Source of the DNA: a virus
IMG/VR virus record: IMGVR_UViG_3300036816_000012
Span: 1-55,345 of that record
DNA: 55,345 bases
Strand: one strand, 5' to 3'
Under the pieces are notes generated by a model. The model searched no databases, had not been told where the DNA came from, and worked only from the letters and a program-made list of their open reading frames with translations. The translations under genes were made by a program, and so were the position numbers. Position 1 is the stretch's first letter, and each line of letters begins with the position of its first letter. This document shows, one piece after another, positions 2,093 to 40,896 of the stretch.

Positions 2093-3189
2093 TCATTAAA
2101 CTACACATCCCGTCTGTTCGAGTCATAGACAGAGATTTCAACCTGCTGGCTGAGATTGACGATTACGAAAGTCTGCAATTCACCCGCCGTTTTTATAGAG
2201 CCGGGGAATTTGAGCTGCACATATCTTTGCACAAGCAAGGCGTTGATCAGCTTCAAAAAGAAAACATCATTGTGATTGATAACAAGATGCACAAGGCTGG
2301 GATAATCCAGAGCCGCAACATCGGGCAAAACGATCAAGGCATCGAAGTTTTAGTGATCAAAGGACCTACGCTTGGCGGCATATTGGATCGGCGCGTGACG
2401 GTGACGGACAACTTCGATCGGGTACGTGGCCCAGCCGAAACCGTCATGAAGCATTACGTTAACAATCATCTGATTAACAGCGACAACACACAGCGCCGCG
2501 TGCCGTTCATGAGTAATGCACCGGACTTAGGGCGAGGAAAGGTCACGCCTTGGCAGACGCGATTTGAACCACTCAATATGGTGGTGCAGGAGGTTGCAGA
2601 ATGGTGTGATATCGGTTGGCAAGTAAGGCTCGACTACAGCGCAAAGAAATGGGTATTTGACGTGCTGCCAGGACGGAACTTAACCGCCAGCCAAAATACA
2701 CTTCCGCCTGTTATTTTCTCACGCGATTTTGACAACATCATGTCGCAGTCCTTCACTGACTCCGACCAACAGTTTAAAAACGTTGGCTATGCAGGCGGGC
2801 AAGGAGAGTATGAAGATAGGCTTATCCAGATGGTTGGCGGAGGTACAGGCGCCGATAGAAGAGAAACATTCCTAGACTGTTCCAGTGCAGAGAATGCCGC
2901 CGAATTAGTCGACATAGGAAACCAGAAGTTGTCTTTACTCAAAAGTATCGTGTCCTACGATGGTCAGATCATAAACACAGGCAGCTTTATCTATGAAGTC
3001 GATTGGGACTTGGGAGACATCGTAACGATGCAAAGCAAATCATGGGGCGTAACGCTGGACAGCCGCATTACCGAAGCCAAAGAGATTTATGAGCCTGATT
3101 CTAAAATCGAAATTTCACTCGGGGAAGAATTGCCAACCATCACGCAAATAGTTCGGAAATTAACTACAGAAGTAAAAAGGAGTGATTAG
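2089..3189 (+). CDS. Tail-associated protein in the Tal position (Siphovirus Gp37-like)
   Basis: A 366-aa ORF makes an ATGA overlap with Dit. The N-terminal 'YESLQFTRRFYRAGEFELHI' resembles the ReqiPepy6 Gp37-like family signature (from memory). Confidence 0.6.
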   Translation: MIIKLHIPSVRVIDRDFNLLAEIDDYESLQFTRRFYRAGEFELHISLHKQGVDQLQKENIIVIDNKMHKAGIIQSRNIGQNDQGIEVLVIKGPTLGGILDRRVTVTDNFDRVRGPAETVMKHYVNNHLINSDNTQRRVPFMSNAPDLGRGKVTPWQTRFEPLNMVVQEVAEWCDIGWQVRLDYSAKKWVFDVLPGRNLTASQNTLPPVIFSRDFDNIMSQSFTDSDQQFKNVGYAGGQGEYEDRLIQMVGGGTGADRRETFLDCSSAENAAELVDIGNQKLSLLKSIVSYDGQIINTGSFIYEVDWDLGDIVTMQSKSWGVTLDSRITEAKEIYEPDSKIEISLGEELPTITQIVRKLTTEVKRSD

Positions 3190-3190
3190 T

Positions 3191-3910
3191 GTGCCGGAGA
3201 AATCAGGTTTTTTTGACTCTACCGCGACGGATGTCCGGGCATATCCTGTCCGAGAGTTTGCATTATACTTTTCCCGGTTTATCGGAAACGGTGTGTTTAA
3301 GGGAGGTACAGCGTTAAAAGTCGAGGCATCAGGTTTGGATTCTAATGTAACTATCAACGTTGGGTATGGGTGGATAAACGGCTATTTGTACAGGGTTTAT
3401 GATGCACCTCAATCTATTGCAATACAGTCTGCATCAACTCAGGATCGTATCGACAGGATTATACTCCGCTTGGATACAAGTACCCCTGTGAGGGCCATCA
3501 AAGCTATGGTGTTGCAGGGTGCGCCAAGTGCAAGCCCTAGTGCTCCAGTTTTGACAAGATCGGGAGATATTTACGACTTGTCTTTGGCTCAAGTGCTGGT
3601 AAAAGCTAATTCCTCCATCGTTCTTCCACAGAATATCACTGACGAACGGTTAAACACTGAGGTCTGCGGTATAGTAACTGGGTTAGTCGAGCAAGCAGAT
3701 ACAACTTTGATATTTAATCAATTCCAGGAGTGGTACAACACCAAGACGATCGAGTTCCAGAAAGAATGGGACGACTTCATGGAAGGTCTCGAAAATGACG
3801 GTTTTGCAACCACGGTGTATGTAAAGGAAAAGGCGGATGCTGCGGAAGTGAATGCGAAATCCTTCACGGAAGATTATGTGGCTAATCAACTTTTATGGGG
3901 GGCGTTATAG
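3191..3910 (+). CDS. Putative tail fibre / receptor-binding protein
   Basis: GTG at 3191 lies 8 nt after AAGGAG; the track start GTG 3182 sits inside the RBS. The N-terminal 'SGFFDS...FIGNGVF...GYGWINGYLY' pattern is seen in Firmicute prophage tail-tip proteins. Confidence 0.5.
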   Translation: MPEKSGFFDSTATDVRAYPVREFALYFSRFIGNGVFKGGTALKVEASGLDSNVTINVGYGWINGYLYRVYDAPQSIAIQSASTQDRIDRIILRLDTSTPVRAIKAMVLQGAPSASPSAPVLTRSGDIYDLSLAQVLVKANSSIVLPQNITDERLNTEVCGIVTGLVEQADTTLIFNQFQEWYNTKTIEFQKEWDDFMEGLENDGFATTVYVKEKADAAEVNAKSFTEDYVANQLLWGAL

Positions 3911-5737: not shown

Positions 5738-5953
5738 GTGAATAAGAAATGGTGGCAAGCGGCAGGCGTTCGAGCTATCAAAACAGGGGCACAGGTGGCA
5801 ATTGGTGTCATCGGTGCAACTACTGTGTTTGCAGCAGTGGACTGGCGTGTAGTGGGCGGGACAGTCGTATTATCGGTAATCACAAGTCTGCTTACTAGCT
5901 TGGCCGGATTGCCGGAAGTAAGCAAAGGAGATGATGCAGATGCAAGCGCGTAA
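5738..5953 (+). CDS. Holin (r1t-holin-like)
   Basis: GTG follows GGGGGA. The 71-aa product 'WWQAAGVRAIKTGAQVAIGVIG...SLLTSLAGLP' has two TM segments and overlaps the endolysin start. Confidence 0.7.
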   Translation: MNKKWWQAAGVRAIKTGAQVAIGVIGATTVFAAVDWRVVGGTVVLSVITSLLTSLAGLPEVSKGDDADASA

Positions 5954-6800
5954 ACAGGGGAATGCTCAGGGTATCGACGTATCACATCACAACGGTAATA
6001 TCGATTTCAAAAAGGTGGCAGCTGACGGGATTTCCTTCGTCTTCATCAAGGCCACACAGGGTAAGTCCTTCCGGTCGCCCAAGTTTCTGCAATTTGTGAA
6101 GGATGCCAAGGCGGCTGGCCTACTGATCGGTGCATACCATTACGTAGATGACTCTGCTGGCAGCTTAGATGCCGCAAAGGCAGAAGCGCAGAATTTCTAC
6201 AGGGCCATTCAGGATGCTGGTGGGATTGGCGTGTTTGATTTACCGCCCGTGATGGACTATGAATCAAATAAAAACAGCTATAGCAAAGCGACGATTACGG
6301 CCGTAGCCAAGACATTTCTTGAAGAGATCCATAAGCTGACCGGAGTTAAACCGCTGGTGTATACATACCCGGCGTTCATCGGCAACTTTACGGGCTTGTC
6401 CTCATATCCGCTCTGGATTGCCAGATACAGCACGCAAACGCCTGCTGATGCTTCCGGCTGGACACGTTGGGACTTCTGGCAATATTCAGACGGATCAGCA
6501 GGGGCTTATCTGCCACGGGGAAACCGGAAGGTTGACGGGATTAGCGGAGCGGTGGACCTGAATGAATTTAACGGCACAGTAGCCGAGTTGAAAGCCAAAT
6601 ACAACAAAACGGTAAAGGAGGACAAGCCAGTGACACAGGAAAGAGACATTAACGTGCCAAGTAAGTGGGCGGAGACAGTCTGGAAGGAAGTAACGGAGAA
6701 AGGATTCTTCGATGGTACACGTCCAGGTGCAGCGGTTACTCGGGAGGAATTGGGTGCTGTGGTGAGCAGGATATTACGCTATGTTGATCAAAAAGGATAA
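5931..6800 (+). CDS. Endolysin, GH25 muramidase domain plus C-terminal domain of unknown type
   Basis: It carries 'GIDVSHHNGNIDFKKVAADGISFVFIKATQG' and 'PPVMDYE', typical GH25 lysozyme motifs. Confidence 0.85.
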   Translation: MMQMQARKQGNAQGIDVSHHNGNIDFKKVAADGISFVFIKATQGKSFRSPKFLQFVKDAKAAGLLIGAYHYVDDSAGSLDAAKAEAQNFYRAIQDAGGIGVFDLPPVMDYESNKNSYSKATITAVAKTFLEEIHKLTGVKPLVYTYPAFIGNFTGLSSYPLWIARYSTQTPADASGWTRWDFWQYSDGSAGAYLPRGNRKVDGISGAVDLNEFNGTVAELKAKYNKTVKEDKPVTQERDINVPSKWAETVWKEVTEKGFFDGTRPGAAVTREELGAVVSRILRYVDQKG

Positions 6801-8649: not shown

Positions 8650-9015
8650 TTATCTACTCAATTTATACAGACAGTATTGATTCAGTGAAACACTCTCGGC
8701 AGCGGCCCGCTCCACCAATTGCCGGTGCAGACTCCGTGGTACGCGCAAATTGAATTTACCGCTGTACTCATCGTCACCGATCGGCTCAGGAATGACGTCT
8801 CCATATTCTAACTTTACCGCCAGGTGTCCCTCCATAGCTTCCCGAACACTCTCGTATGCTTCAGCAAAGGTATCTCCGTTGCTTTGGCACCCATCTAATT
8901 CCGCAACAGTTGCGAAGAAATAGTCACCGCTCTCGTCTTTAACGGGTCTGATCTGTATCGTATACGGGAGGGCCATGTAATACGCTAAATCCTTATTTTG
9001 GCTATGATTTGCCAT
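8650..9015 (-). CDS. hicB: HicB-family antitoxin (N-terminal HicB fold plus C-terminal RHH)
   Basis: It carries 'YFFATVAELDGCQSNGDTFAEAYESVREAMEGHL' and a C-terminal 'FNLRVPRSLHRQLVERAAAESVSLNQY', and lies downstream of hicA. Confidence 0.85.
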   Translation of the reverse strand: MANHSQNKDLAYYMALPYTIQIRPVKDESGDYFFATVAELDGCQSNGDTFAEAYESVREAMEGHLAVKLEYGDVIPEPIGDDEYSGKFNLRVPRSLHRQLVERAAAESVSLNQYCLYKLSR

Positions 9016-9060
9016 TATTATTCGGCTAGGATATCATGTGGATTAAGGAAAGGGGAGGTG

Positions 9061-9285
9061 CTACTCCCCGATCCGGTCCAGTACGTCTTTGACGTATGCC
9101 GCCTTTAGTGGTTGTTCCTTTTTGATGGTTATCAAGTCTCCTGCTTGGTTTCGGAAATGGAAGTGCGAACCGTTGCTTCTCACTAATTCATAACCGTGAT
9201 GCCGGAGTACCTTGGCAACTTCATCATATTGGATTCCACTGGGGCGGTCTTTCATTTTTTGGACCAATTTTTCTATCCTAGCCAT
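9061..9285 (-). CDS. hicA: HicA-family mRNA-interferase toxin
   Basis: The 74-aa product contains 'VLRHHGYELVRSNGSHFHFRN'. RBS AGGAGGTGAGAC precedes the ATG. Confidence 0.85.
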   Translation of the reverse strand: MARIEKLVQKMKDRPSGIQYDEVAKVLRHHGYELVRSNGSHFHFRNQAGDLITIKKEQPLKAAYVKDVLDRIGE

Positions 9286-9298
9286 GTCTCACCTCCTA

Positions 9299-9322
9299 CA
9301 TATATAGTACCATATATAGTAC
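9299..9322. repeat. Perfect 12-bp tandem direct repeat catatatagtac x2, immediately upstream of the hicA RBS
   Basis: Read directly from the sequence. It is a candidate HicB operator and/or -10 region. Confidence 0.8.
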
Positions 9323-9447
9323 TAATGAACAAGGTGCTTATTTGTCCGAGTTAATATAGCTTTAAATCGGTACTTGCATTACCCGATCTAGTCGTATTAA
9401 AATAATTTGGTAGGTTCCCGAGGAGCTACCCAAGAAGGGTTAACTTA

Positions 9448-9555
9448 ATGAAGCAACATCGTTCAAAGAGAAGTTTTATGGAGTGGGCTTGGATAAAATT
9501 GGTTACTGTGCTATCGTTTAAAGTGATTTTGGAGGTTTTAGAGTTATTTAATTAA
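9448..9555 (+). CDS. Possible small peptide (35 aa, MKQHRSKRSFMEWAWIKLVTVLSFKVILEVLELFN)
   Basis: It is the only ORF in a 470-bp intergenic gap. The SD is weak (gaaggg, 8 nt upstream) and a strong hairpin lies downstream. Confidence 0.25.
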   Translation: MKQHRSKRSFMEWAWIKLVTVLSFKVILEVLELFN

Positions 9556-9604
9556 GCCAACAATTAACCAAAGCTACCTACAAATAACTATGGGATTTTA
9601 TTTG

Positions 9605-9632
9605 GGACACTGATTTTTTATAATCAGTGTCC
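9605..9632. other. Perfect 11-bp stem hairpin ggacactgatt/aatcagtgtcc
   Basis: Read directly. The loop is 6 nt and there is no clean T-run on either side. Confidence 0.7.
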
Positions 9633-9710
9633 ACAGGTGCAATATAAAATAAATTTGATTTTTGATTTATGTTGCTTTTGTCTCAAAGAACCATGATCTT
9701 AGAAGAACCA

Positions 9711-9751
9711 AAAAGAGCAGTGAGGAATTTTTAGACCTCACTGCTCTTTTT
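9711..9751. terminator. Bidirectional rho-independent terminator
   Basis: A perfect 12-bp stem agagcagtgagg/cctcactgctct is flanked by A4 and T5 runs. It lies 5 nt downstream of the minus-strand SRAP gene. Confidence 0.8.
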
Positions 9752-9755
9752 CTGT

Positions 9756-10427
9756 TTAACCTACTTCATTAATTAAACCCTCATTGTTATTCCGTACATT
9801 GCCGACTTCCTTCGGCACTTCGTATGCTCTCATTTCAGAAGCCTGATACGGCTTAAGCAGACTGAGTAAAGACTGAACATCATCATTATCTTTTCCTAGC
9901 CATTCTGCCTCATCTTCAGGCCGTAAAATAACCGGCATACGATTGTGGATGTCTTCCATCAGACTATTTGGTTCAGTTGTAATGATAGTACATGTGCTCA
10001 GCTTGTTTCCGTCGGGATCTGTCCAGGTATCATATAGGCCAGCCAATGAAAATATGCTGTCGTCCTTCATCAGAATTCGCATAGGTCGCTTAGCAGTTCC
10101 TTCTTTCTTCCATTCGTAAAATCCATTCGTCGGGATAATACAACGTTTGGAGCTGATCAGGCGTTTAAAAGCTGGCTTCTCTGCTAGTGTCTCGGCCCTG
10201 GCGTTAATCATCTTATTTCCGATCTTGTCATCCTTGGCCCACACAGGCACCAGACCCCATCGGAGTGAGCCCAATCGATTACCGTCTTTACTACCAATAA
10301 TTGTGGGAATAAACTGCATGGGTGCTGCATTGTAATTAGGTTTGTACTCAAATCCGTCTGCAATAGATGCATAGTACCTGTCCATTATAGCCTCTATAGG
10401 GTCAGTGATCGTAAATCTACCACACAT
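9756..10427 (-). CDS. SOS-response-associated peptidase (SRAP/YedK/YoqW family)
   Basis: The true start ATG is 8 nt after AGGAGG and gives 'MCGRFT', with the catalytic Cys2. The track start is a GTG inside the RBS. Confidence 0.85.
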   Translation of the reverse strand: MCGRFTITDPIEAIMDRYYASIADGFEYKPNYNAAPMQFIPTIIGSKDGNRLGSLRWGLVPVWAKDDKIGNKMINARAETLAEKPAFKRLISSKRCIIPTNGFYEWKKEGTAKRPMRILMKDDSIFSLAGLYDTWTDPDGNKLSTCTIITTEPNSLMEDIHNRMPVILRPEDEAEWLGKDNDDVQSLLSLLKPYQASEMRAYEVPKEVGNVRNNNEGLINEVG

Positions 10428-10463
10428 ACAAAGCACCTCCTGTATTGTCTTTACAATATATAA

Positions 10464-11321
10464 TCACACGATAAATTGATCAAACACGGGTATACGTAGT
10501 AAGCCGGATTTGGTCCAGTTCCGCATCTTGACCCTGGCTTGTATCTTCGGTTCCAGGTACACATAATCATTATCTTGGCCTGTTACGAGTTGCTGGCATA
10601 CACCGCGGAATGCCTGCTTATGCTTTTGATTTGGGCCATGCTCAATTATTCCTGCTGGTCGAAGCCTGCCGGACAGATCGGGCACAGCAGCAAGCCATCC
10701 GAATTCAGTTTTTCGATACCCAGTGATATAAACATCGGCGTATGACCAGTTAATGACCTTCATCCAGTCTCGGGAACGTCTGCTAACGTACTGGCTGTCC
10801 TTACGCTTGCCGACTACACCCTCCATACCCATAGCCTCTATCTGAGCGTATAGGTCCTCTCCTGCGCCTTCTATATGGGGCACAACTCCAAAGTTAGAGG
10901 AAGGAAGAGATAGACTGTGTAGGATCATCTTGCGTTCCATAAGAGGTAGCTTACGGAGATCCTGTCCTTTGTACTGCAGAATATCGAATATGGCGAACGT
11001 GGCTGGCAATGTCTTGGTGAGCTGCTGAACCTTTGAGTGTTGCCGAGTGCTGAACCGGCTCATGACTGCCTCAAAGTCATTCAATCCTGTCAGTGGATCG
11101 GTGCAAGCGACCTCTCCGTCAAGAATGATGTCAGAGCCAAAGGGAAGCGACAATTCAGGGTACTGTTGGGTACAATCGTTATTGTGACGTGTATATAACC
11201 GGATTTCTCCAGCTTGTTGCGAATATATCAACCGGTGTCCGTCAACTTTCGGTTCGAAAATGTAATCCGAATGTGAGAAGGGAACTGGCGATGTCTCAAG
11301 TAACATTGGGGATATAAACAT
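10464..11321 (-). CDS. ATP-dependent DNA ligase (LigB/LigD-ligase-domain-like)
   Basis: It carries the KxDG adenylation motif 'EPKVDGHRL'. The start ATG is 7 nt after GAGGTG ('MFISPMLLE'). Confidence 0.8.
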   Translation of the reverse strand: MFISPMLLETSPVPFSHSDYIFEPKVDGHRLIYSQQAGEIRLYTRHNNDCTQQYPELSLPFGSDIILDGEVACTDPLTGLNDFEAVMSRFSTRQHSKVQQLTKTLPATFAIFDILQYKGQDLRKLPLMERKMILHSLSLPSSNFGVVPHIEGAGEDLYAQIEAMGMEGVVGKRKDSQYVSRRSRDWMKVINWSYADVYITGYRKTEFGWLAAVPDLSGRLRPAGIIEHGPNQKHKQAFRGVCQQLVTGQDNDYVYLEPKIQARVKMRNWTKSGLLRIPVFDQFIV

Positions 11322-11384
11322 AAAAAAACACCTCAACCCAATTATAGCGTTTTGCCATAAAGGATTGAGGCGGTAAGTTATGGG

Positions 11385-11663
11385 TTATTGATTTTCTTTC
11401 CCGTTGATGTAGGCGGATTTGATAATACTCATGCAACTATCAATCGTACATGGATCAGATCCAGAAAGCCACGCAACTGTATCTAGTTCTTCTTTTGTTA
11501 ATTCACGACCAATACAATCTTGGGTTGATCCAAGGAAGCGTTTATACTGCTCAAGCTGCCATTCTTCCATCAGTAACCCATCTGGCCTATAAGGCCTTGC
11601 TAGATCAACTACAAGCCACTCAGCACGACCGCGACTATTTATGCCTTTATATTGTAAGTCCAT
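11385..11663 (-). CDS. Hypothetical protein (92 aa)
   Basis: It is packed in the minus-strand operon. Confidence 0.55.
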   Translation of the reverse strand: MDLQYKGINSRGRAEWLVVDLARPYRPDGLLMEEWQLEQYKRFLGSTQDCIGRELTKEELDTVAWLSGSDPCTIDSCMSIIKSAYINGKENQ

Positions 11664-11667
11664 TCAA

Positions 11668-12123
11668 TCACTCTCCTTGTTCAAAAATAAATTCCACCAA
11701 CGTACCATCCGGGTAATCCTCTAACTGATTTCCTACCCAGCTGCCAGCGCCTCTGTTATCCGATGGACTTATGTATTCGATATCTGCTCCTTCTCCGCCT
11801 TCAGCACACATTGCCATAGGCCATTCATCACGATCATAGCCCTTCTTCGTGTCTATGCCTCTCAGTGACTCTTTGCGGTTCTCCTCTGCTCCTTCACGGT
11901 CAATGGTACATGTAGCGGGATGACCACTATCTACGGCGTCCTGGATGTGTTTGGCTGTCTCTGGATAGCGATCAGCAGGAAAGATAAGTTGTACAGTTGA
12001 TTTTTCCTGTTGTGTTACAGGTGCTATTTCTTTTGGTGAGTCTCCTGAATCCTGTTCATTCCAACTTAGAATCGATACAGCAATTATTATGGCTAATGCT
12101 AATGGTACAATGAGCTTTTTCAT
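11668..12123 (-). CDS. Secreted NucA/NucB-type DNase
   Basis: The ATG after GGGAGG gives an N-terminal signal/anchor 'MKKLIVPLALAIIIAVSIL'. It also carries 'DRYPETAKHIQDAV' and 'YDRDEWPMAMCAEGG'. Confidence 0.75.
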   Translation of the reverse strand: MKKLIVPLALAIIIAVSILSWNEQDSGDSPKEIAPVTQQEKSTVQLIFPADRYPETAKHIQDAVDSGHPATCTIDREGAEENRKESLRGIDTKKGYDRDEWPMAMCAEGGEGADIEYISPSDNRGAGSWVGNQLEDYPDGTLVEFIFEQGE

Positions 12124-12141
12124 TCTACAACCTCCCAATTA

Positions 12142-12426
12142 TCACTTCGGCAATTCCTTAAAATACTCCTTCACCTGACGCTCTAGAAGGATGTATTCAC
12201 GCTTAATACGCCAGTTCCTTACAATATATCGTTTCTCCTGTGTGACCACAGCAGGGGTGGTTACCCAGGCTGTACAACGGTCGTCTACATTGAACCCATA
12301 CTTTTCAAACGCCTTTATACATATTAATCGGATAGACTCAGGGTTTTGCTTACCTGTACCAGCACATTGGTAACATACATAACCAGAGGAGTAGCGGCCG
12401 GAGCCGCCACAGCGTTCACAGTTCAT
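12142..12426 (-). CDS. DnaJ-type zinc-finger protein (94 aa)
   Basis: It has two CxxCxGxG motifs: 'CERCGGSG' and 'CYQCAGTG'. Confidence 0.6.
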   Translation of the reverse strand: MNCERCGGSGRYSSGYVCYQCAGTGKQNPESIRLICIKAFEKYGFNVDDRCTAWVTTPAVVTQEKRYIVRNWRIKREYILLERQVKEYFKELPK

Positions 12427-12674
12427 CGTGTATCACCATATGTAACTTTGCCGGTGATCTGTAGCTCCTCCAGCCGAGCGCAAGTCTCATGCTGCCACTG
12501 GGTATCATCCGTCATCGATGCTAACATGGATTCATTTTGCAACCTAGCTAATTGCCAACAGTGCTTTGCGTTAAGTTCCAAACATTGATTCATCTCGGTC
12601 AATTCATCCTCATTAAGCAAACGCTTCTTTGCAATGGACCATAACTCAGCCATACGTGCATGATAAGGGAACAT
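12423..12674 (-). CDS. Hypothetical protein (83 aa), first gene of the minus-strand block
   Basis: RBS aaggaggcggttgaaATG; ATGA overlap with the next gene. Confidence 0.6.
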   Translation of the reverse strand: MFPYHARMAELWSIAKKRLLNEDELTEMNQCLELNAKHCWQLARLQNESMLASMTDDTQWQHETCARLEELQITGKVTYGDTR

Positions 12675-12713
12675 TTCAACCGCCTCCTTGATCTTATAAG
12701 CCTATTTTAAAAG

Positions 12714-12775
12714 CTTTAAAATGCTGTGTAAATATCTAAATCGAATGTTGTTAAATATTTTTAAATGCTGTAGAA
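12714..12775. promoter_or_regulatory. Divergent promoter region with direct repeat ttaaa(a)tgctgt x2
   Basis: The repeat copies are ctttaaaatgctgtgta (12714-12730) and ttttaaatgctgtagaa (12759-12775), between divergent operons. Confidence 0.45.
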
Positions 12776-12798
12776 TTGGTGGACAAGGAGTTGATGTT

Positions 12799-12960
12799 AT
12801 GGTAGGCAGACCACCGAAGAAGGAAAAGAAGGTACGGGAGGCGATTTACTTCGAACCTGAGTTAATTGAATGGTTGCGTGAGGAAGCAGAAAAACAGAAA
12901 TGTACAGTAAGCGTGGTTGTGAACCAAATCGTGGATGCGAAGAAGAGCAGCGAAGAATAA
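12799..12960 (+). CDS. Small ribbon-helix-helix (CopG-like) DNA-binding protein (53 aa)
   Basis: ATG lies 8 nt after AAGGAG. 'KVREAIYFEPELIEWLREEAEKQKCTVSVVVNQIV' fits an RHH pattern. Confidence 0.55.
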   Translation: MVGRPPKKEKKVREAIYFEPELIEWLREEAEKQKCTVSVVVNQIVDAKKSSEE

Positions 12961-13100
12961 TTGTACATAGAATGGGGTAAGATATTATTACTCTCTCTCC
13001 CATGAGATTTTCCATAAATGTACCTGGTCATTGCGACTGGGTATTTTTGTTGTTGATAAAAGAACGTACGTTCGCATATAATAAACACGAGGTGATTTAC

Positions 13101-13385
13101 ATGTTAACGGATTATCAACGAAAGGTCCTACGGATCTTGTACAACTACAAAGGTGGGCGGCGTAGGTTTCCTACAATCCACGAACTAACGGTTAAAACAG
13201 GCAAGCATAAACCGGATGTCATGGCTGCTCTGGACGCTCTTGTGGCTGCTGAATACATACATTGGGATGATAAGTCGGACACTGCCAACATCGTCATTTT
13301 AGAAGGCTGGGAGCGTGAAGGTGAACGACCTAAGGTTGACCGCACACCACCGTCTGGAAACATCGACTATTGGACTGAATATTAA
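13101..13385 (+). CDS. Winged-helix DNA-binding protein (94 aa)
   Basis: ATG follows GAGGTG. 'YQRKVLRILYNY...FPTIHELTVKTGKHKPDVMAALDALVAAEYI' is LexA-N/MarR-like. Confidence 0.5.
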   Translation: MLTDYQRKVLRILYNYKGGRRRFPTIHELTVKTGKHKPDVMAALDALVAAEYIHWDDKSDTANIVILEGWEREGERPKVDRTPPSGNIDYWTEY

Positions 13386-13398
13386 GGAGGCGTTTATC

Positions 13399-13731
13399 AT
13401 GCGTAGTAGACTTGAGGGAAACGGATTGTACGAATCGTCCAGAATGATTATGCCGGAGCACAGAGAGGCTTGGTTAGCTCAATGTGAGCAGCAGGAGAGA
13501 CGGGGAAAGCCAGTATTAGACGAGCAAGAGTATCAGCGAATTGGGGAAGTGCTGACCGACTCTTATAATAGAAGTAGTACGATTGATTTGGTATTATTTA
13601 ACCCTTTCTATGACGAACCGTTGTCGGGTGTGGTCGTAGGTTTAAATTCATCACGGCGTGAAGTCAAGTTGATGTTAGATGAAGAATTCCGTTGGATCTC
13701 TTTAGCTGAAATTATCTCTGTAAATGAGTGA
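13399..13731 (+). CDS. YolD-like protein
   Basis: ATG follows TAAGGAGG. 'MIMPEHREAW...' with a C-terminal beta-rich half resembles the YolD/YqjX family. Confidence 0.6.
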   Translation: MRSRLEGNGLYESSRMIMPEHREAWLAQCEQQERRGKPVLDEQEYQRIGEVLTDSYNRSSTIDLVLFNPFYDEPLSGVVVGLNSSRREVKLMLDEEFRWISLAEIISVNE

Positions 13732-13797
13732 ATTTGTATGAATTTGGCTATGGAATTGCCAACTAATCATCTATAATATTGGTATACGATATTATAG
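13729..13797 (+). promoter_or_regulatory. Activator-type promoter candidate for the agr-like cassette
   Basis: TGAATTTG occurs at 13729 and 13739, and TGGAATTG at 13751. TATAAT lies at 13772-13777 with no good -35 hexamer. A 9-bp inverted repeat ctataatat/atattatag spans 13771-13797. Confidence 0.45.
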
Positions 13798-13812: not shown

Positions 13813-14442
13813 ATGCTTGAATCAATCGGATTCATGTTTTTTTCTACATTAGAGACATTTTCTTGGTACTTATTAAGTATGTCATTGTTTCGTTATAAGC
13901 CTTATGAGCACACTTGGTCAGCTCTCTTTGTGATTTTGCTTATGAACCTTCAAAGTTTCGTTTTAAGAAATGAATTATCAATGTCTTCATATGCACCATT
14001 GATAAGTATGTTGATATTCATATTTTTCTATGCGGTTGTGGTGAAGATTCCCCTGATTGGATCTCTCATTATAACGTTGGCTGGGTTCGCGGGATTTGGT
14101 TTAGTGCAAGCCGGTCTAGTTTTTGTTTTATTTGGTTCAATTGAAGCAGCTCAATCTTCTCTAAGCAATGGTTACGCTCTTCAGACGGCCACAGCTATAG
14201 TTGTTTTCATATTGGCTAGAGTCCCATACAGGTTTGGATATGGCATACCGCTGGAGTTTGAAAAGCTAAAATTTAAATTTGAAGAAATTTTAACAAGTGT
14301 ACTAATGATCATATTCTTATGTGTGATCTCAGGAGTCCTTTACTACAATAATTTGTGGATACTTATATTTTTGTTTGCTTGCACATTAGGATACTTACTT
14401 TACTTCTCAGCTAAAAAAGATCGGAGTACATGGAATGATTGA
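13813..14442 (+). CDS. Polytopic membrane protein (209 aa, ~6 TM), AgrC-sensor-like or LytTR-system membrane inhibitor; no kinase domain
   Basis: The protein is entirely hydrophobic helices. It is translationally coupled to agrB through the overlap ATGATTGA. Confidence 0.65.
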   Translation: MLESIGFMFFSTLETFSWYLLSMSLFRYKPYEHTWSALFVILLMNLQSFVLRNELSMSSYAPLISMLIFIFFYAVVVKIPLIGSLIITLAGFAGFGLVQAGLVFVLFGSIEAAQSSLSNGYALQTATAIVVFILARVPYRFGYGIPLEFEKLKFKFEEILTSVLMIIFLCVISGVLYYNNLWILIFLFACTLGYLLYFSAKKDRSTWND

Positions 14443-14959
14443 GAATATCTCACAACGTCTCGCTATTGGGTTGAAGAAACGTGTACCTGATCACCCTTCA
14501 TCGGCAGATATATTTCGGTTTACGATTGCTGCAATAATAAATACCGTAGCTATAATTCTCTTAACCTTACTTATTTCGTTTTTCACAAATAAGACAAATG
14601 AAATTATTATAATACTCATTTCATTTGCCGTTCTCAGAATAGTGTCTGGTGGTATACACTTAAAGTCAGGAGATAAATGTGTACTAGCAACAACAGCACT
14701 TTTCACAGGTATCTCTTTTGTGAGTATAACGTATGAATACATTTTACTATTAAATATACTGAGTCTATTGCTGGCCTTTTTATACGCTCCATCAAGGATT
14801 GAAAATCAATCTAAAATTGACCCAAAACACTATCCGAAGTTAAAGGTAGTGTCGATAATAATAATAGCAACAAACTTTTTGTTTATGTCGTCAGTACTTG
14901 CAGCAGTATTTTTTGTACAATGTCTAACTTTGATTAAGATGAAAGGGGTGAAAAAATGA
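14435..14959 (+). CDS. agrB: AgrB-family AIP-processing membrane peptidase
   Basis: 'RIVSGGIHLKSGDKC' has His and Cys 7 residues apart, as in S. aureus AgrB H77/C84. It also has a 'LYAPS...K' motif and multiple TM helices. Confidence 0.8.
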   Translation: MIENISQRLAIGLKKRVPDHPSSADIFRFTIAAIINTVAIILLTLLISFFTNKTNEIIIILISFAVLRIVSGGIHLKSGDKCVLATTALFTGISFVSITYEYILLLNILSLLLAFLYAPSRIENQSKIDPKHYPKLKVVSIIIIATNFLFMSSVLAAVFFVQCLTLIKMKGVKK

Positions 14960-15084
14960 AAACGAGTTATTTGTACAGTATAGCAACTGGATTGACTACA
15001 ATTGCTGGGTTAATTGTTTCTGCTGCGAGTGTGCTTTTTATTTACCAAGGCGATACACCAAAAGAATTGTTGGAGAAAAAGTAA
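14956..15084 (+). CDS. agrD: AgrD-like autoinducing-peptide precursor (42 aa)
   Basis: The product is MKTSYLYSIATGLTTIAGLIVSAASVLFIYQGDTPKELLEKK. It has a hydrophobic N-helix and a charged C-tail with PKEL. It makes an ATGA overlap with agrB and is preceded by RBS GGGGTG. Confidence 0.7.
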   Translation: MKTSYLYSIATGLTTIAGLIVSAASVLFIYQGDTPKELLEKK

Positions 15085-15102
15085 ATGTAATGAGGTGATC
15101 AT

Positions 15103-15519
15103 GTGTATGAACTAGAATACCTGGCCGTATCTAAAGAGAGGGATGGGGAAACAGGTGGTATGAATGTACCCGTTAAGAATGTAACCCACCTAGAAGCAGA
15201 TACATACATGGTAATTGTCCATACTGCAAAAGATCAATACTATCTAATGGGAACAATGGTTTACTGGGTAAAGACGTTAAACGCCAGTGGATACAATTTC
15301 AGAAATGCTGACCGTAGTAGTATTATTAATGTAGATAATATCGCGTCAGTCGACATGAGTTTTAAAGTGGCATACTTCGAAGATGATATAAACAAACATT
15401 CTAAGAAGTGTACTTTAACCGTGGATAGATTGAATAAGATTATAGATGAATTCCCGCAGTTGGCATATAAGTGTAATTCGAGGATGCTGCTTAAAAGAAT
15501 GTTACGTTTCAACAGATAG
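15103..15519 (+). CDS. Stand-alone LytTR-domain DNA-binding protein (138 aa, no receiver domain)
   Basis: The GTG start follows GAGGTG. 'VTHLEADTYMVIVHTAKDQYYLMGTM...GYNFRNADRSSIINVDNIASVD' matches the LytTR pattern. Confidence 0.7.
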   Translation: MYELEYLAVSKERDGETGGMNVPVKNVTHLEADTYMVIVHTAKDQYYLMGTMVYWVKTLNASGYNFRNADRSSIINVDNIASVDMSFKVAYFEDDINKHSKKCTLTVDRLNKIIDEFPQLAYKCNSRMLLKRMLRFNR

Positions 15520-15542
15520 TCGCTGATGCGGCTATTTTTTTT
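15517..15542 (+). terminator. Rho-independent terminator after the agr-like cassette
   Basis: The stem tagtcgc/gcggcta (one G-U pair) is followed by a T8 run. Confidence 0.7.
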
Positions 15543-15712
15543 AACTAGGCAAACTTACCATAAATAGGATGAAAAGTATGTCGAATCATGTTGTCGAAAG
15601 TGTTGATTTCGCCCGGCGAATTAACATTTACAAGTTATGGGATATGTTATTTAATTAAACCAGAAGGAAGTAAATTAAGGAAAGAGAGTTGAATCAAATG
15701 AAGTGGTGTTAG

Positions 15713-15737
15713 GATGAGTACTATATTAGTACTCATC
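15713..15737. repeat. Perfect 10-bp inverted repeat gatgagtact-atatt-agtactcatc
   Basis: Read directly. A second small palindrome, cgcggt-taa-accgcg, follows it. Confidence 0.8.
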
Positions 15738-15766
15738 TGACCGGGGGAGCGCGGTTAAACCGCGAC

Positions 15767-16573: not shown

Positions 16574-18064
16574 TCAGTAAATAATCAGTTTGTCTCTATA
16601 TTTTTTCGTCTCACTAGGTTGAATCTTTCTAACCTCTCCCCATTTGAAATGAACTTCAGCTGGTGCTCCTGGAACAATCTTTTCTACTAAGAACTCGATC
16701 GATATTCGTTTAGCATCATCTGGGATGATTTCGATAAGGTCTGAAAATTCTTGAATAGCATCTCCAAAGTCGCCAAACTTTTTAGATTGTGGAAGCGGAG
16801 CTTTACTCAAAAGGTCCATGATTTCTAACTTCCGTTTCCCGTATCGACTTGTTGACCTCTCGTATTGATCTTCTGTAATTTTGTTATGCAGATAATAATC
16901 GTCGAATATTTTTTGTTCTGCTCTGTTGATGTTCGATAATTCATCTTGTAATTTAGAGAAGGAGTTAGATTCTTGTTTTTCTCCATCCATCTCCGATAGC
17001 ACTGATTGAAATCCATATTTATTTTCTGCCATTTCACTAATTAGTTTTATGACTGCATCATTCAAGGTGTTTTGGTCGTAGTTAGGACTTTGGCATTTCC
17101 CAAGTGATGTCTTTCTGTTACAAACATATTTTCTCCGATCTTTCTTTGAAGAGAAATGACGAGAGTGCATTTTAGATCCGCACTCTGGACAAATAAGCAT
17201 AGAGGTTAACAACTGCCGCTGTTTACCTTTCCAAGCTTTTTCTTTTCCGAATAATGTAGATTGGATATAAATGAAGGTATCCCAATCGACTATAACTGGA
17301 CAATTAGCCAACGGGTAAAATTTATCTTTCCATTTCTGCTTGGCAGCATAGGTAGGATTAGTAAGCATATACCTAACCCTTCGAGCGCTCCATTCTTTCC
17401 CCGTTTCACTTGGTACCTCGTTATCATTTAACCATCGAGCTATAAGGTAAGGTCCCTTACCAGAGAGAGCCATCTCAAATGCTTTCCTCACGTAAATTGA
17501 CTTTTCAAAAACCTCTTCGAACCCATTCTCTATTTTTTTTAGACCAAATGGTGGAGGGCCGCCATTCCAGCGCCCTTTCTCAGCGTTGGTCCTTTTGTTT
17601 TCATTCATTATTTCGCTTAGGTTGTCTGAATAGTATTCGTTGAGGTCGACAAAGAAACCGGCTATAAGACGCCCGTTTGGTGTGCTGAAGTCCACAGCTT
17701 CAGAAGCTGAACAGATATCAATTTGATGTGTTTTAAGGATCTCGTATAGTTTTTGAAAGTCTTTTTTCAAACGGGTTAGCCTAGAGAGGTTGAAAAATAC
17801 AAACTTTTTGACAGAATCACGTTCTTCAATAAACTGAAGTGCTTCCATTAGTCCAGGTCGTTTGGTGTAATCAATCCTAAAACCTGAATAGTCAATATCT
17901 TTAAACACTTTGACAAGCTTATAGCCGTTAAACTCACAAAACTGCTCTATTTTTCTTAATTGAGTTAGCTCTGAAATATCCTCTTTGTCCTGTCTTTGAT
18001 CACTTTGACGGATATAAGCGATCGCTTCAACGACTTGGTTTCTTTCATCGCGGGCAGCTAACAT
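16574..18064 (-). CDS. int: Large serine recombinase (integrase)
   Basis: The 496-aa product has an N-terminal resolvase motif 'AYIRQSDQRQ', a recombinase domain, a zinc ribbon 'CPECGSKM...YVCNRK' and a coiled-coil C-terminus. Confidence 0.9.
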   Translation of the reverse strand: MLAARDERNQVVEAIAYIRQSDQRQDKEDISELTQLRKIEQFCEFNGYKLVKVFKDIDYSGFRIDYTKRPGLMEALQFIEERDSVKKFVFFNLSRLTRLKKDFQKLYEILKTHQIDICSASEAVDFSTPNGRLIAGFFVDLNEYYSDNLSEIMNENKRTNAEKGRWNGGPPPFGLKKIENGFEEVFEKSIYVRKAFEMALSGKGPYLIARWLNDNEVPSETGKEWSARRVRYMLTNPTYAAKQKWKDKFYPLANCPVIVDWDTFIYIQSTLFGKEKAWKGKQRQLLTSMLICPECGSKMHSRHFSSKKDRRKYVCNRKTSLGKCQSPNYDQNTLNDAVIKLISEMAENKYGFQSVLSEMDGEKQESNSFSKLQDELSNINRAEQKIFDDYYLHNKITEDQYERSTSRYGKRKLEIMDLLSKAPLPQSKKFGDFGDAIQEFSDLIEIIPDDAKRISIEFLVEKIVPGAPAEVHFKWGEVRKIQPSETKKYRDKLIIY

Positions 18065-38616: not shown

Positions 38617-40896
38617 ATGAGGGACTTAACCCCAAAGCGGTCACTGAAACCATTACGAAATTTAAAGCCTGGTCGGAATTTAAACTGGGATTTCAAAATT
38701 AAACGTTCTGACCCGAATTATCGGGAGACAGGCACATGGCTCTCCAGTTCATTAACGGGATTCGAAGGTGATTCGACTGTTTATTCCGCTACTGCTGGTG
38801 ATAAAGCCGAATGGAGCAGGTACGCCAGCAGGACGGGAAACTACAATGTGTATGTCTGGTATCCACTTGGACCAAGCACTGAGCAGGCTGAGTATGTTGT
38901 CACATCGTTGGGTGGTACATGGCAGCGATATATAGATCAAACCAAGAACACGGGCAAATGGGTTAAGATTGCCACGATCAGTGCGGTAGCTGGTACGGTC
39001 ATGTCGGTTACTCTAAACGTTCTCAAGGGCAACACGAGATCTGGGCAGGTTAGGTTTGAATATACAGAAGACAAGGCTGACCCTCTCGGTTCCAGTGTTA
39101 TTGATACAGAGACAATCGGAATTTTCTTGAATCAATCAGGGTTTGATACTTTGAAATCAAAACGGGCTACCATTACGAATGTACCGGATGGGACAACATT
39201 CGATGTCAAAGCCAAAGGGGATGACAAAGTTGTATTCAGCGGCAAAGTGAAAGGGCAAATTGCTGATTTTACATCGTTCCAGACACCTGGTGAATATTAC
39301 ATTGAATGCCCTGGTAAGAAATATCCTTTCACCTTCAGGATTGAGAAGTATTGGACACAGCGGGTCTCGGTTGGCCCTGCACTCCGGTTTATGGATCAGT
39401 CACGCAGTGATGTATTCTTGACCGGAGCAAACGGTGTTGCGTGGCGTGATAGTCATCAGTTCAGTTTTGAGCTAGAGAGTTTGACGCAGCAGTACCAAGC
39501 TAATCCGAGCTTATATGACCGAATGCCAATGGGTATCAGCAATTTGGCTACATGCCAGTACTCGGAACTGAGAACACAGACCGAGCCCGATATCATTTGG
39601 CTTATGAAATTCGCTGTGCTGAGATACTGGGACCTTTGGAAGAACCAAGGCAAAAAGCATCATGCTCTGATCAAGGCCCAGCTCCCGTACTTCTTACATC
39701 TTTATCCGGATATTAAGCAGTATGTGAGTGAAGAGTTTTACACCAAGATTCGGGATTTTGCCATTGCTGTATGGGCTGAACCTGAATCGAATTATCATTG
39801 GTATGAAACTGCAGCATTCCACACGCTGACTACTAACAACAACTTGCTGGAAGTACAGCCGAACATTGGTGGGATCAAGGGTGAAAAGCCTCCGGGTTAT
39901 GCAATCCGACCCAACTTGCTAATGTATGAGGTTTGCAAACGTGATGGTATAGCTGACTACATGAAGTATCAGACAGCTGCGGTGGAAAATGCGAAATGGC
40001 TGGTTAACTCGGTTAATTTGGATGATCCGGCGATGACAAAGGGCCAGCGAATGAGCGAGTATGTCACCGTTCAAGGGCTGGCTTTTATGTTGGAACAGTA
40101 TCCATCACTTGCTCCGAAAGGAACATTGGAAAAAATCAATCGCTGGGTTGATGTCATGATTGCACGCTCGAATAACCTTTGGGATTTGCGGAAATACGCC
40201 GACCCTAAAGATGGAACTGGTATCGGGCTTGATCAATGGACAGGTGGGTTGATCCAATACAATGAACCAGGCAATTTGACGGGATTCCTATCCATAGCCT
40301 ATGCGGCTGCCCGAGTAATCACTGATCCAGCCAAGAAAGCACGGATCAAAGAAATCGGTATTGCACAACTGGATAATGCCTTTGGTCGAAATCCATTCAA
40401 CCGACATTTCAGCTATGACGGACCGAGAGAAATTGAGGGCGTCGATCAGGGATGGCCAACATTTTACGTCGGCGGCGCTGGTGTGCTTCAAGACGTTGTT
40501 GGTGTAATTGATGGATCTCCAAAGGAATCAGCCTACCCATTTAACCCCAAAGCTCCAGCAGGATATACAGAGGGTTGGGTTGCGTTTAACACAGCGTGGA
40601 ATTCATCCCTTGCATACCATGCTGCAGATGACACTGAGATCAGTGCCACACGCTCAGGAACAACGATTACGGTTGTTTTGAGAGCTGCCCTCAACTTGGA
40701 CAGCACCAAGGTGGAAACGGGGCAGGTGAATGTCCTAACCAGTGCAGGCGCAGCTTCTAAACTGACTGTGACTGAGAACAGCACTGATGATTACCTGTTC
40801 AGTGGAGCATTGACAGTACCAGCAGGCGTATCGTGGGTTGAATTCTCGTATGGTTACGGGTTGTTCAGAAAGAAAGTACGAGTCACAACAGGGTAA
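38617..40896 (+). CDS. Multidomain putative glycan-active enzyme: golvesin-C-like domain + CelD_N-like Ig domain + (alpha/alpha)6 GH9-like domain + C-terminal Ig-like domain
   Basis: 'GTWLSSSLTGFEGDSTVYSA..AGDKAEW...GNYNVYVWYP...AEYVV...GKWVKIA...GQVRF' is a golvesin-like pattern. 'FLNQSGFDTLKSKRATI...DFTSFQTPGEYYIE..GKKYPFTFRI' is a GH9 N-terminal Ig-like pattern. 'ALRFMDQSRS' matches the start of a GH9 catalytic domain. The canonical DAGD motif is not seen. Confidence 0.5.
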   Translation: MRDLTPKRSLKPLRNLKPGRNLNWDFKIKRSDPNYRETGTWLSSSLTGFEGDSTVYSATAGDKAEWSRYASRTGNYNVYVWYPLGPSTEQAEYVVTSLGGTWQRYIDQTKNTGKWVKIATISAVAGTVMSVTLNVLKGNTRSGQVRFEYTEDKADPLGSSVIDTETIGIFLNQSGFDTLKSKRATITNVPDGTTFDVKAKGDDKVVFSGKVKGQIADFTSFQTPGEYYIECPGKKYPFTFRIEKYWTQRVSVGPALRFMDQSRSDVFLTGANGVAWRDSHQFSFELESLTQQYQANPSLYDRMPMGISNLATCQYSELRTQTEPDIIWLMKFAVLRYWDLWKNQGKKHHALIKAQLPYFLHLYPDIKQYVSEEFYTKIRDFAIAVWAEPESNYHWYETAAFHTLTTNNNLLEVQPNIGGIKGEKPPGYAIRPNLLMYEVCKRDGIADYMKYQTAAVENAKWLVNSVNLDDPAMTKGQRMSEYVTVQGLAFMLEQYPSLAPKGTLEKINRWVDVMIARSNNLWDLRKYADPKDGTGIGLDQWTGGLIQYNEPGNLTGFLSIAYAAARVITDPAKKARIKEIGIAQLDNAFGRNPFNRHFSYDGPREIEGVDQGWPTFYVGGAGVLQDVVGVIDGSPKESAYPFNPKAPAGYTEGWVAFNTAWNSSLAYHAADDTEISATRSGTTITVVLRAALNLDSTKVETGQVNVLTSAGAASKLTVTENSTDDYLFSGALTVPAGVSWVEFSYGYGLFRKKVRVTTG

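Follow-up and report, generated by a model that had tools for sequence, protein, structure and literature searches.

A kinase-less agr-type cassette with a stand-alone LytTR protein in a temperate Paenibacillus phage and its relatives in the Paenibacillaceae

The sequence analysed here, referred to as the window, is a stretch of 55,345 nucleotides that comprises positions 1 to 55,345 of the IMG/VR virus record IMGVR_UViG_3300036816_000012 and is a temperate Paenibacillus phage. Between its lysis module and the genes for a serine integrase and a CI-like repressor, the window carries four plus-strand genes at 13813-15519 in the order TM-AgrB-AgrD-LytTR, as read from the open reading frame (ORF) calls, where TM stands for a transmembrane protein (Table 1). 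The TM gene overlaps agrB by the 8-bp sequence ATGATTGA (14435-14442), and agrB overlaps agrD by a 4-bp ATGA (14956-14959). The sender side of this cassette is agr-like, its logic is that of the LytTR regulatory systems, and two defining features of the agr receiver side, the AgrC kinase and the AgrA receiver domain, are missing. A preliminary description of the locus, made from the window sequence alone, had given the same four-gene layout with coordinates and overlaps that match the sequence exactly, and had placed the cassette in lysogeny-side cargo near the integrase, which is where it lies.

The sender side consists of an AgrB-type peptidase and its substrate. The 174-aa product of the second gene is an AgrB protein (Pfam PF04647, E=3e-21, 76 bits against a cutoff of 23) and also matches phrog_10353 (E=3e-41). 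As in canonical agr (agrBDCA of Staphylococcus aureus and the clostridial agrA-agrC-agrB-agrD), it contains a His/Cys pair, with H75 and C82 located seven residues apart within GGIHLKSGDKC. Both residues, together with R68, G72, G73 and P119, are conserved in at least 95% of 40 cassette AgrBs. The 42-aa AgrD passes the NCBIfam model TIGR04223, 'AgrD family cyclic lactone autoinducer peptide', with 24.4 bits against a cutoff of 19. About 55 cassette AgrDs with a PxELL tail share the consensus (A/x)S-x-x-(F/Y)-(I/V)-(Y/H/N)-x-(G/P)-(E/D)-x-P-x-E-L-L-K, which retains the five-residue ring and PxEL tail of canonical AgrD. The cleavage register was set by aligning the PxEL tail with S. aureus AgrD, which has Pro as the sixth residue after the AgrB cleavage site and Cys as the fifth residue from the peptide end. 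On this alignment, AgrB is predicted to cut after I29 and to cyclise the peptide through S25, which would give a Ser-lactone ring SVLFI (15028-15042) and leave the tail YQGDTPKELLEKK. The ring Ser is nearly invariant among the PxELL-tail AgrDs. A single peptide, at locus L035 (6913-7242, Paenibacillus strain HW567), has Cys at this position (...GTNCFLFWYKGDIPAELLKK), so that lactone and thiolactone chemistries are both predicted in the family. From locus to locus, ring positions 2 (V/W/I/F/P) and 3 (L/V/G/A) differ, as would be expected of specificity groups.

The output side is reduced to a DNA-binding domain. The 138-aa product of the last gene matches Pfam LytTR (PF04397, E=5e-8, 33.5 bits against a cutoff of 22.6), and nothing else was found in the protein. 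A profile built from 46 orthologues has its best PDB match in the LytTR domain of S. aureus AgrA (3BS1, E=1.6e-7), which is covered as a whole domain, followed by ComE (4CBV, E=6e-4); a search of the PDB with the single sequence, unlike the profile, gave no match. The output protein therefore has an AgrA-type LytTR domain, as in canonical agr. The protein has no REC match, its orthologues at all loci are 118-141 aa long, and the closest relatives are named 'LytTR family transcriptional regulator DNA-binding domain-containing protein' by NCBI. The AgrB, AgrD and LytTR assignments of the preliminary description, including that of a LytTR-only protein free of a receiver domain, are thus borne out above the curated cutoffs of Pfam and NCBIfam.

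The cassette and the other window ORFs tested gave no match to a HisKA, HATPase or REC domain, in agreement with the earlier claim that kinase and receiver are absent. The same holds for about 65 related cassettes, in or adjoining which phmmer searches with AgrC and AgrA (5-6 kb flanks) revealed no AgrC-like kinase or REC-LytTR protein; the single-sequence AgrA query is a weak one, which leaves the cassettes' own LytTR proteins undetected. The sole kinase match in the flanks is an unrelated 694-aa ORF on the opposite strand about 2 kb upstream of the cassette at L044, and homologous cassettes thus have no conventional AgrC/AgrA pair at their side within these flanks. Without a DHp/HATPase_c_5 kinase module and without a receiver, phosphotransfer is impossible within the cassette.

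The first gene encodes the least familiar component. The AF2 model of TM (predicted local distance difference test score, pLDDT, 84; predicted template modelling score, pTM, 0.83) contains seven membrane helices, one more than the approximately six counted from the sequence in the preliminary description. Lys and Arg residues are enriched in loops 1, 3 and 5 and at the C-terminus, which places these elements inside and the N-terminus outside; the cytoplasm-facing parts are thus a long basic loop 5 and the C-terminus. The invariant residues of the family include S11, E14, R27, N45, S48, L51, R52, P62, Q99, F107, G108, S109, Y121 and Q124, and 12 of 16 invariant residues are located in the outer half or outer loops. 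The gene call supplied with the source record (P0002, 166 aa) begins at an internal Met, 43 residues short of the ORF used here. The omitted residues hold the family-invariant S11, E14 and R27, which indicates that the 209-aa ORF is the real gene. TM matches phrog_15604, 'membrane protein' (E=7e-6). It is not matched by any entry of Pfam, NCBIfam or PADLOC, significant Pfam matches are also absent from ten distant members of its family, and a comparison of the TM sequence profile with the PDB gave no match. A transporter, which would have spoken against a signalling role, was not found by Pfam, NCBIfam or Foldseek. Close homologues are about 205-214 aa long, have no Pfam domain and all come from Paenibacillus or Cohnella. 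When 1.84 billion representative proteins were searched with a profile, 445 protein clusters were recovered at E<=1e-3, and a repeat search with a wide TM alignment added almost no further members. None of the best 150 of the 445 clusters exceeds 242 aa or is fused to a kinase, and each is a stand-alone protein, full-length members having 188-242 aa, from which it follows that TM is not a truncated kinase.

The TM gene lies directly upstream of agrB at every agrB-bearing locus examined. This is the place of the AgrC sensor part in clostridial agr, a polytopic membrane protein of comparable size (about 210 aa). In phiCDHM1 and in clostridial plasmid loci, agrC is found directly upstream of agrB, and the AgrC sensor parts measure 207-220 aa compared with 205-222 aa for full-length TM proteins of the fetched loci. 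The complete order agrA-agrC-agrB-agrD, often followed by a radical SAM gene, was observed on Paraclostridium and Clostridioides plasmids (L067, L068, L070 and L071). TM itself was tried as an AgrC sensor domain and rejected, with no match in hhalign comparisons with phiCDHM1 AgrC and nine sensor domains or in NCBIfam and Pfam. The position and sensor-domain size of TM and the resemblance of LytTR to the AgrA C-terminal domain would also fit a decayed agrCBDA locus, in which TM is an AgrC that has lost its kinase, LytTR is an AgrA that has lost its receiver, and no signalling of its own is left. Such an origin is very improbable. Lengths are uniform, the invariant residues persist across proteins that are otherwise 30-50% identical, and an intact cassette is present in every evaluable viral contig and in the isolated phages, which indicates long-term purifying selection on the architecture; the stand-alone state of the TM clusters and the lack of kinase fusions among the best 150 point the same way. 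A pseudogenised canonical agr locus was accordingly rejected on conservation grounds and is excluded for practical purposes.

To define the distribution of the cassette, a scan of one genome per species yielded 41 loci, all in Paenibacillaceae, and a scan of IMG/VR yielded 15 viral contigs; ORFs were called at each locus and searched with hidden Markov models (HMMs) built from the cassette proteins. TM-AgrB-AgrD-LytTR in the same order and with tight spacing was found at about 30 of the 41 genome loci, which belong to Paenibacillus and Cohnella, and in all 14 evaluable viral contigs. A tblastn search with AgrB matched the Brevibacillus phages Abouo, Davies and Emery and the P. larvae phages Harrison and Paisley. 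The deposited genomes of Abouo, Emery and Harrison show the same four-gene order; Davies and Paisley have equivalent AgrB-plus-membrane-protein matches at the level of tblastn. Prophage settings, with an endolysin or holin upstream and repressors downstream, were observed at L001 and L004/5. At L003 (P. shirakamiensis), the cassette is located between sporulation, lysA and ppiB genes on one side and scpAB on the other, with no prophage context, and at L006 (Cohnella) it lies amid sugar-utilisation genes. The cassette is therefore a Paenibacillaceae module that is not specific to phages: it is phage-borne, as had been proposed, and it also occurs among core chromosomal genes.

These chromosomal copies bear on the possibility that the cassette interferes with a host agr system. 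In this alternative, the peptide would cross-talk to a host AgrC, LytTR would act as a dominant-negative competitor of AgrA, and TM would be a decoy or sink. BlpS-type proteins of streptococcal bacteriocin loci offer a precedent, since they consist of a LytTR domain only, are encoded in a peptide-pheromone locus and act as competing repressors. BlpS-type loci also encode a conventional kinase and a REC-LytTR regulator (BlpH/BlpR); the small LytTR-only protein is alike in the cassette, and no such pair stands beside it in the 5-6 kb flanks. Among solved structures, the AgrA DNA-binding domain is the closest relative of the cassette LytTR, every phage copy is complete and lies in a cargo region, and host-directed roles have been proposed for phage agr genes (Hargreaves et al., 2014; PMC3901668). 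The copies amid core chromosomal genes at L003 and L006, however, point to an autonomous system, and no conventional agrCA was found near any copy within the flanks, whole host genomes not having been searched. The pace of LytTR evolution is a further point. Among 31 complete loci, LytTR is the fastest-evolving protein (mean identity 35%, compared with 41% for TM and 44% for AgrB) and diverges in step with TM, which is not expected if a conserved host AgrA site must be recognised. We regard interference with host agr as quite unlikely.

The loci that have lost components are informative about the partners of TM. At nine chromosomal loci, TM and LytTR are intact and AgrB is absent or fragmentary. 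L009 (6004-7047), L019 (6001-7053) and L032 (5989-7092) are clean two-gene TM-LytTR operons; L011, L012 and L031 have kept AgrD and lost AgrB, and L014, L015 and L036 hold AgrB fragments only. The TM proteins of all nine retain every invariant residue. In the 31 complete loci, the pairwise identities of TM and LytTR show the strongest correlation of all pairs (r=0.80, partial 0.55), which is only suggestive, as raw identities were used with no correction for shared phylogeny. Taken together, the AgrB-less loci and the TM-LytTR correlation suggest that TM and LytTR form a receptor-regulator pair. The 'receiver-only' Paenibacillus loci without AgrB (L009, L019, L032, L011, L012 and L031) may be eavesdroppers on the peptides of other strains or phages.

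The same loci speak against a biosynthetic role of TM, in which it would serve AgrB as an accessory, either an AgrD leader protease or an exporter, like MroQ of S. aureus, with LytTR not gated by TM and the sensing encoded elsewhere. A dedicated AgrD-processing enzyme is not expected to persist where AgrB has been lost, and three of the nine loci also lack AgrD. No peptidase signature, be it CPBP/Abi, rhomboid or another, is present in TM, none of its conserved residues is a His or an Asp, and its divergence follows that of LytTR more than that of AgrB or AgrD. A biosynthetic role would account for the coupling of the TM gene to agrB by the 8-bp overlap in nearly all loci, and for the invariant polar residues S11, E14, N45, S48, R52, Q99, S109, Y121 and Q124, which face the outer half of the membrane, the expected site of leader removal; it would also fit the lack of resemblance to any known receptor in Foldseek and hhalign comparisons. 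Two species have TM-AgrB-AgrD without an intact LytTR, which is again compatible with it. One of these loci, L003, holds a short LytTR remnant and looks decayed rather than distinct in design. On balance, a biosynthetic TM is unlikely.

Several loci depart from the four-gene plan by addition. Phage Emery (L051) has two tandem TM paralogues (2107-2772 and 2840-3508). A second stand-alone LytTR gene lies a few hundred bases downstream of the first at L026 (7941-8315), L054 (7197-7661) and L064 (7332-7754). At L003 (7673-7984), L006 (7687-7989), L010, L017, L044, L042, L043 and L047, TM is preceded by a small gene (about 70-130 aa) whose end lies 4-42 bp away. Two types were distinguished, ...LLGSKEVAE.L.IDPKN.HH.RKTK.FPEP... 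and ...SREAAE.WGLSENTVTQW.NRG.F.P.EARKS.KVWLVT..., both of which look like helix-turn-helix proteins and could be an extra regulatory component.

TM and LytTR are encoded on one strand and in one operon, between a promoter-proximal block and a terminator. Two imperfect repeats, ATGAATTTG and ATGGAATTG, are embedded in the 28-bp block TTGTATGAATTTGGCTATGGAATTGCCA. The closest clade (the window, L001/L052 and L007/L053) has three distinct sequences upstream of TM, all of which share this block without a change, while the flanking bases differ. The sequence TGAATTTG is present twice upstream of TM, 10 bp apart, and the repeat motif of the window has a single occurrence in the window and is otherwise found only in its closest relatives. 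The TATAAT -10 element is kept in 5 of 5 aligned upstream regions. No -35 hexamer is present at the canonical distance from it in the window sequence, which fits an activator-dependent promoter. In 48 upstream regions of the family, 67 repeat pairs were observed compared with 43 +/- 8 in shuffled sequences, with no common spacing; autoregulation of the operon by LytTR is therefore no more than plausible, and only for the clade of the window. A perfect 9-nt inverted repeat, CTATAATAT / ATATTATAG, lies at 13771-13779 and 13789-13797 with 9 nt between its arms, one of which overlaps the -10 element; it may be a repressor operator or a 5´-leader hairpin. Downstream of the operon, a terminator scan found a hairpin with a 10-pair stem (15514-15537) followed by TTTTTTAACTA.

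The LytTR regulatory systems HdrRM and BrsRM of Streptococcus mutans resemble the cassette in that a receiver-less LytTR protein is co-transcribed with a membrane protein and no phosphorylation is possible. Compared with these systems, the cassette exhibits certain discrepancies. The regulator gene is upstream of the membrane inhibitor in all cases surveyed by Zou et al. (2018; PMC6193735), whereas TM comes first and LytTR last at every cassette locus. AgrB and AgrD are absent from those operons, whereas the cassette encodes a candidate ligand. Of the two known membrane inhibitors, the comparison covers HdrM, which has a DUF2154 domain; TM has no Pfam match. The promoters of LytTR regulatory systems contain direct repeats and are subject to positive autoregulation (PMC6193735), and such repeats are not general across the cassette family. 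The view of the cassette as a hybrid with HdrRM/BrsRM, put forward in the preliminary description, is accordingly to be read as an analogy only. A membrane protein that gates a stand-alone LytTR is nevertheless the best hypothesis for the mechanism.

Canonical agr is separated from the cassette by more than the absence of the AgrC kinase, of the AgrA receiver and of detectable AgrC sensor homology in TM. AgrA is the conserved component of canonical agr; in the cassette, the LytTR gene stands last in the operon and its product is the fastest-evolving rather than the most conserved. The agr3 locus of the Clostridioides difficile phage phiCDHM1 (agrC-agrB-agrD) is likewise phage agr cargo between the lysis and lysogeny modules. 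Its membrane-protein gene also overlaps agrB by 8 bp, and its AgrD closely resembles that of the cassette in the Ser-containing core and in the tail (TSVWYINQPKMPKSL). Unlike TM, the phiCDHM1 membrane protein is a full 453-aa kinase with HATPase_c_5, and phiCDHM1 has no LytTR gene.

Taking these features together, we put at about 0.5 the probability that the cassette is a self-contained, phosphorylation-independent agr variant in which TM senses a Ser-lactone peptide and directly gates LytTR. AgrB would cleave AgrD after I29 and cyclise it through S25, and the five-residue Ser-lactone peptide with the ring SVLFI would be released. TM, which occupies an agrC-like position, has an external N-terminus and carries most of its conserved polar residues in the outer half, would be the membrane receptor for this peptide. 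As neither TM nor LytTR is capable of phosphotransfer, TM would control LytTR by direct contact, holding it at the membrane or releasing it, in the manner of the membrane inhibitors of LytTR regulatory systems. Freed LytTR would act on DNA, probably including the activator-type promoter of its own operon with the block at 13734-13762, and on further targets. In the temperate phage, the operon would be expressed from cargo between the lysis and lysogeny modules, and lysogens or infected cells would signal to, and sense, cells with the same element. The broader proposal, that TM represents a new type of cyclic-autoinducer receptor with phosphorylation-free release of an AgrA-like LytTR and that it serves a private phage channel, is more tentative, and we hold it at somewhat less than even odds.

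Several observations weigh against this interpretation. The contacts of TM with the peptide and with LytTR are predicted ones. The fold of TM has no solved relative in the PDB (Foldseek, best E-value 2), and TM matches no Pfam family, including the DUF2154 of HdrM. Alignment of the TM profile with AgrC sensor domains by hhalign gave probabilities of 0.1-0.3% in local mode and 6.7% in forced global mode; the comparison set consisted of phiCDHM1 AgrC and an alignment of nine sensor domains, eight from phage or plasmid records and that of S. aureus. In the model, the outward-facing conserved polar residues of TM are as compatible with an enzyme as with a receptor. The AF2 model of LytTR, built from a five-sequence alignment, is unusable (pLDDT 36). 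No repeat or spacing is common to the 48 upstream regions, and direct repeats of the LytTR type are not general. The two species without an intact LytTR and the phylogeny shared by TM and LytTR in the correlation given above count on the same side.

The cassette follows a block of cargo genes at 8650-13731, many of which are related to DNA damage or are nuclease-related (Table 1). The neighbourhood of ligase, DUF7667 and YolD genes is also found in L001, the closest relative. Neither PADLOC defence systems nor Rfam RNA families were detected in or around the cassette, and the deposited phage collection contains no near-identical DNA or TM protein. Between the cassette and a small XRE gene, a perfect palindrome with 11-nt arms, GATGAGTACTA-TTA-TAGTACTCATC, occupies 15713-15737, and the GC-rich hairpin CGCGGTTAAACCGCG follows at 15750-15764; the two may serve as an operator or a bidirectional terminator, or belong to the attachment region. 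Elsewhere in the window, a 759-aa protein with a Golvesin C-terminal domain and a cellulase N-terminal Ig-like domain (CelD_N) is encoded at 38617-40896 and has no PHROG match. It lies between the replication and packaging genes, an unusual site for a carbohydrate-binding-type protein.

Table 1. Features of the cassette and its surroundings in the window.
Feature	Position	Strand	Remarks
TM protein	13813-14442	+	209 aa; seven membrane helices; proposed peptide receptor (predicted) and partner of LytTR
AgrB-family membrane peptidase	14435-14959	+	174 aa; catalytic-type residues H75 and C82
AgrD propeptide	14956-15084	+	42 aa; predicted Ser-lactone ring S25-V-L-F-I29
Stand-alone LytTR DNA-binding protein	15103-15519	+	138 aa; GTG start behind GAGGTG ribosome-binding site
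Conserved 28-bp promoter-proximal block	13734-13762	+	imperfect repeats; candidate operator or activator site
TATAAT -10 element	13772-13777	+	operon promoter
Terminator-like hairpin and T-run	15514-15545	+	operon end
Structural and lysis genes	endolysin, 5931-6800		tape-measure end, Dit, tail proteins, endolysin
HicB antitoxin	8650-9015	-	cargo upstream of cassette
SOS-response-associated peptidase SRAP	9756-10436	-	cargo upstream of cassette
ATP-dependent DNA ligase	10464-11336	-	cargo upstream of cassette
NucA/NucB-like protein	11668-12138	-	cargo upstream of cassette; slightly below Pfam cutoff
DUF7667	12423-12674	-	cargo upstream of cassette
YolD-like protein	13315-13731		cargo upstream of cassette
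Lysogeny genes	large serine integrase, 16574-18064	- (integrase)	small XRE gene, large serine integrase, S24-type CI-like repressor, anti-repressor
Replication and packaging genes			DnaB, methyltransferase, ThyA, large terminase, portal, protease, major capsid

The isolated phages place the cassette of the window in a wider family. In Abouo (gp44-47), Harrison (gp38-41) and Emery, the cassette adjoins integrase or lysogeny genes and encodes, in this order, a membrane protein, AgrB (again with an overlap of 8 bp), a peptide some 40 aa long and a LytTR protein some 120 aa long. The membrane proteins of these phages match the TM-family HMM with E=1e-24 to 1e-31. The window cassette is a member of this Abouo/Harrison-type family of phage cassettes. 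The relationship is distant, with only about 21-25% identity in TM and 33-38% in AgrB, and the doubled TM of Emery is a further difference. Abouo gp46 (L049, 4019-4147), Harrison gp40 (L050, 4013-4141) and Emery gp56 (L051, 4027-4143) retain a GSPxxPxEL tail and, unlike the window AgrD, lack both Ser and Cys where the ring residue is predicted (e.g. ...KEKVFLGSQPLPKELKRPKQ). Their product may be linear or otherwise cyclised, or the cleavage register may be different. The LytTR gene of these phages is annotated as 'peptidase' or 'hypothetical'. RefSeq gives 'peptidase' for the fourth gene of Abouo (L049, 4151-4519) and Harrison (L050, 4148-4504), as does PHROG 15081; both proteins are LytTR by Pfam (29 bits against the cutoff of 22.6), and the label looks like a propagated mis-annotation.

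In their account of phiCDHM1, Hargreaves et al. (2014; PMC3901668) remarked on AgrB and AgrD, together with a membrane protein that lacks a kinase, in three Abouo-type phages; the LytTR gene was not mentioned, and only Pseudomonas phages were cited as carriers of LytTR. The genome papers of the isolated phages list AgrB in gene tables only. Apart from this remark and these entries, no paper was found on the four-gene unit or its mechanism. The earlier statement that no phage system of this architecture had been described thus needs qualification: the four-gene order is present in the deposited genomes of Abouo, Emery and Harrison, and the kinase-less membrane protein was noted in 2014. As far as the literature searched goes, neither the chromosomal copies and the wide spread of the family nor the conservation of a stand-alone LytTR has been remarked on.

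The agr system serves in textbooks as the example of peptides sensed by a histidine kinase, and a kinase-free agr, if true, would be evidence that this signal chemistry is open to another way of reading. It would constitute a third wiring of peptide quorum sensing in Firmicutes, beside the two-component systems (agr/com) and the cytoplasmic RRNPP receptors, and the first LytTR regulatory system with an identified ligand, the likely ligand being encoded beside its receptor. What turns on a LytTR regulatory system could then be examined directly, and one promoter, two proteins and a synthetic peptide would be enough for it. In practical terms, the RefSeq label 'peptidase' on the fourth gene of the phage records appears to be wrong. 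The cassettes add complete sender-plus-receiver modules in temperate phages of Paenibacillus and Brevibacillus, including phages of the honeybee pathogen P. larvae. These modules are arbitrium-like in concept and made of agr parts, and if the proposed mechanism is correct, the phage channel would report the density of cells with the same element and feed it into the control of prophage or host genes.

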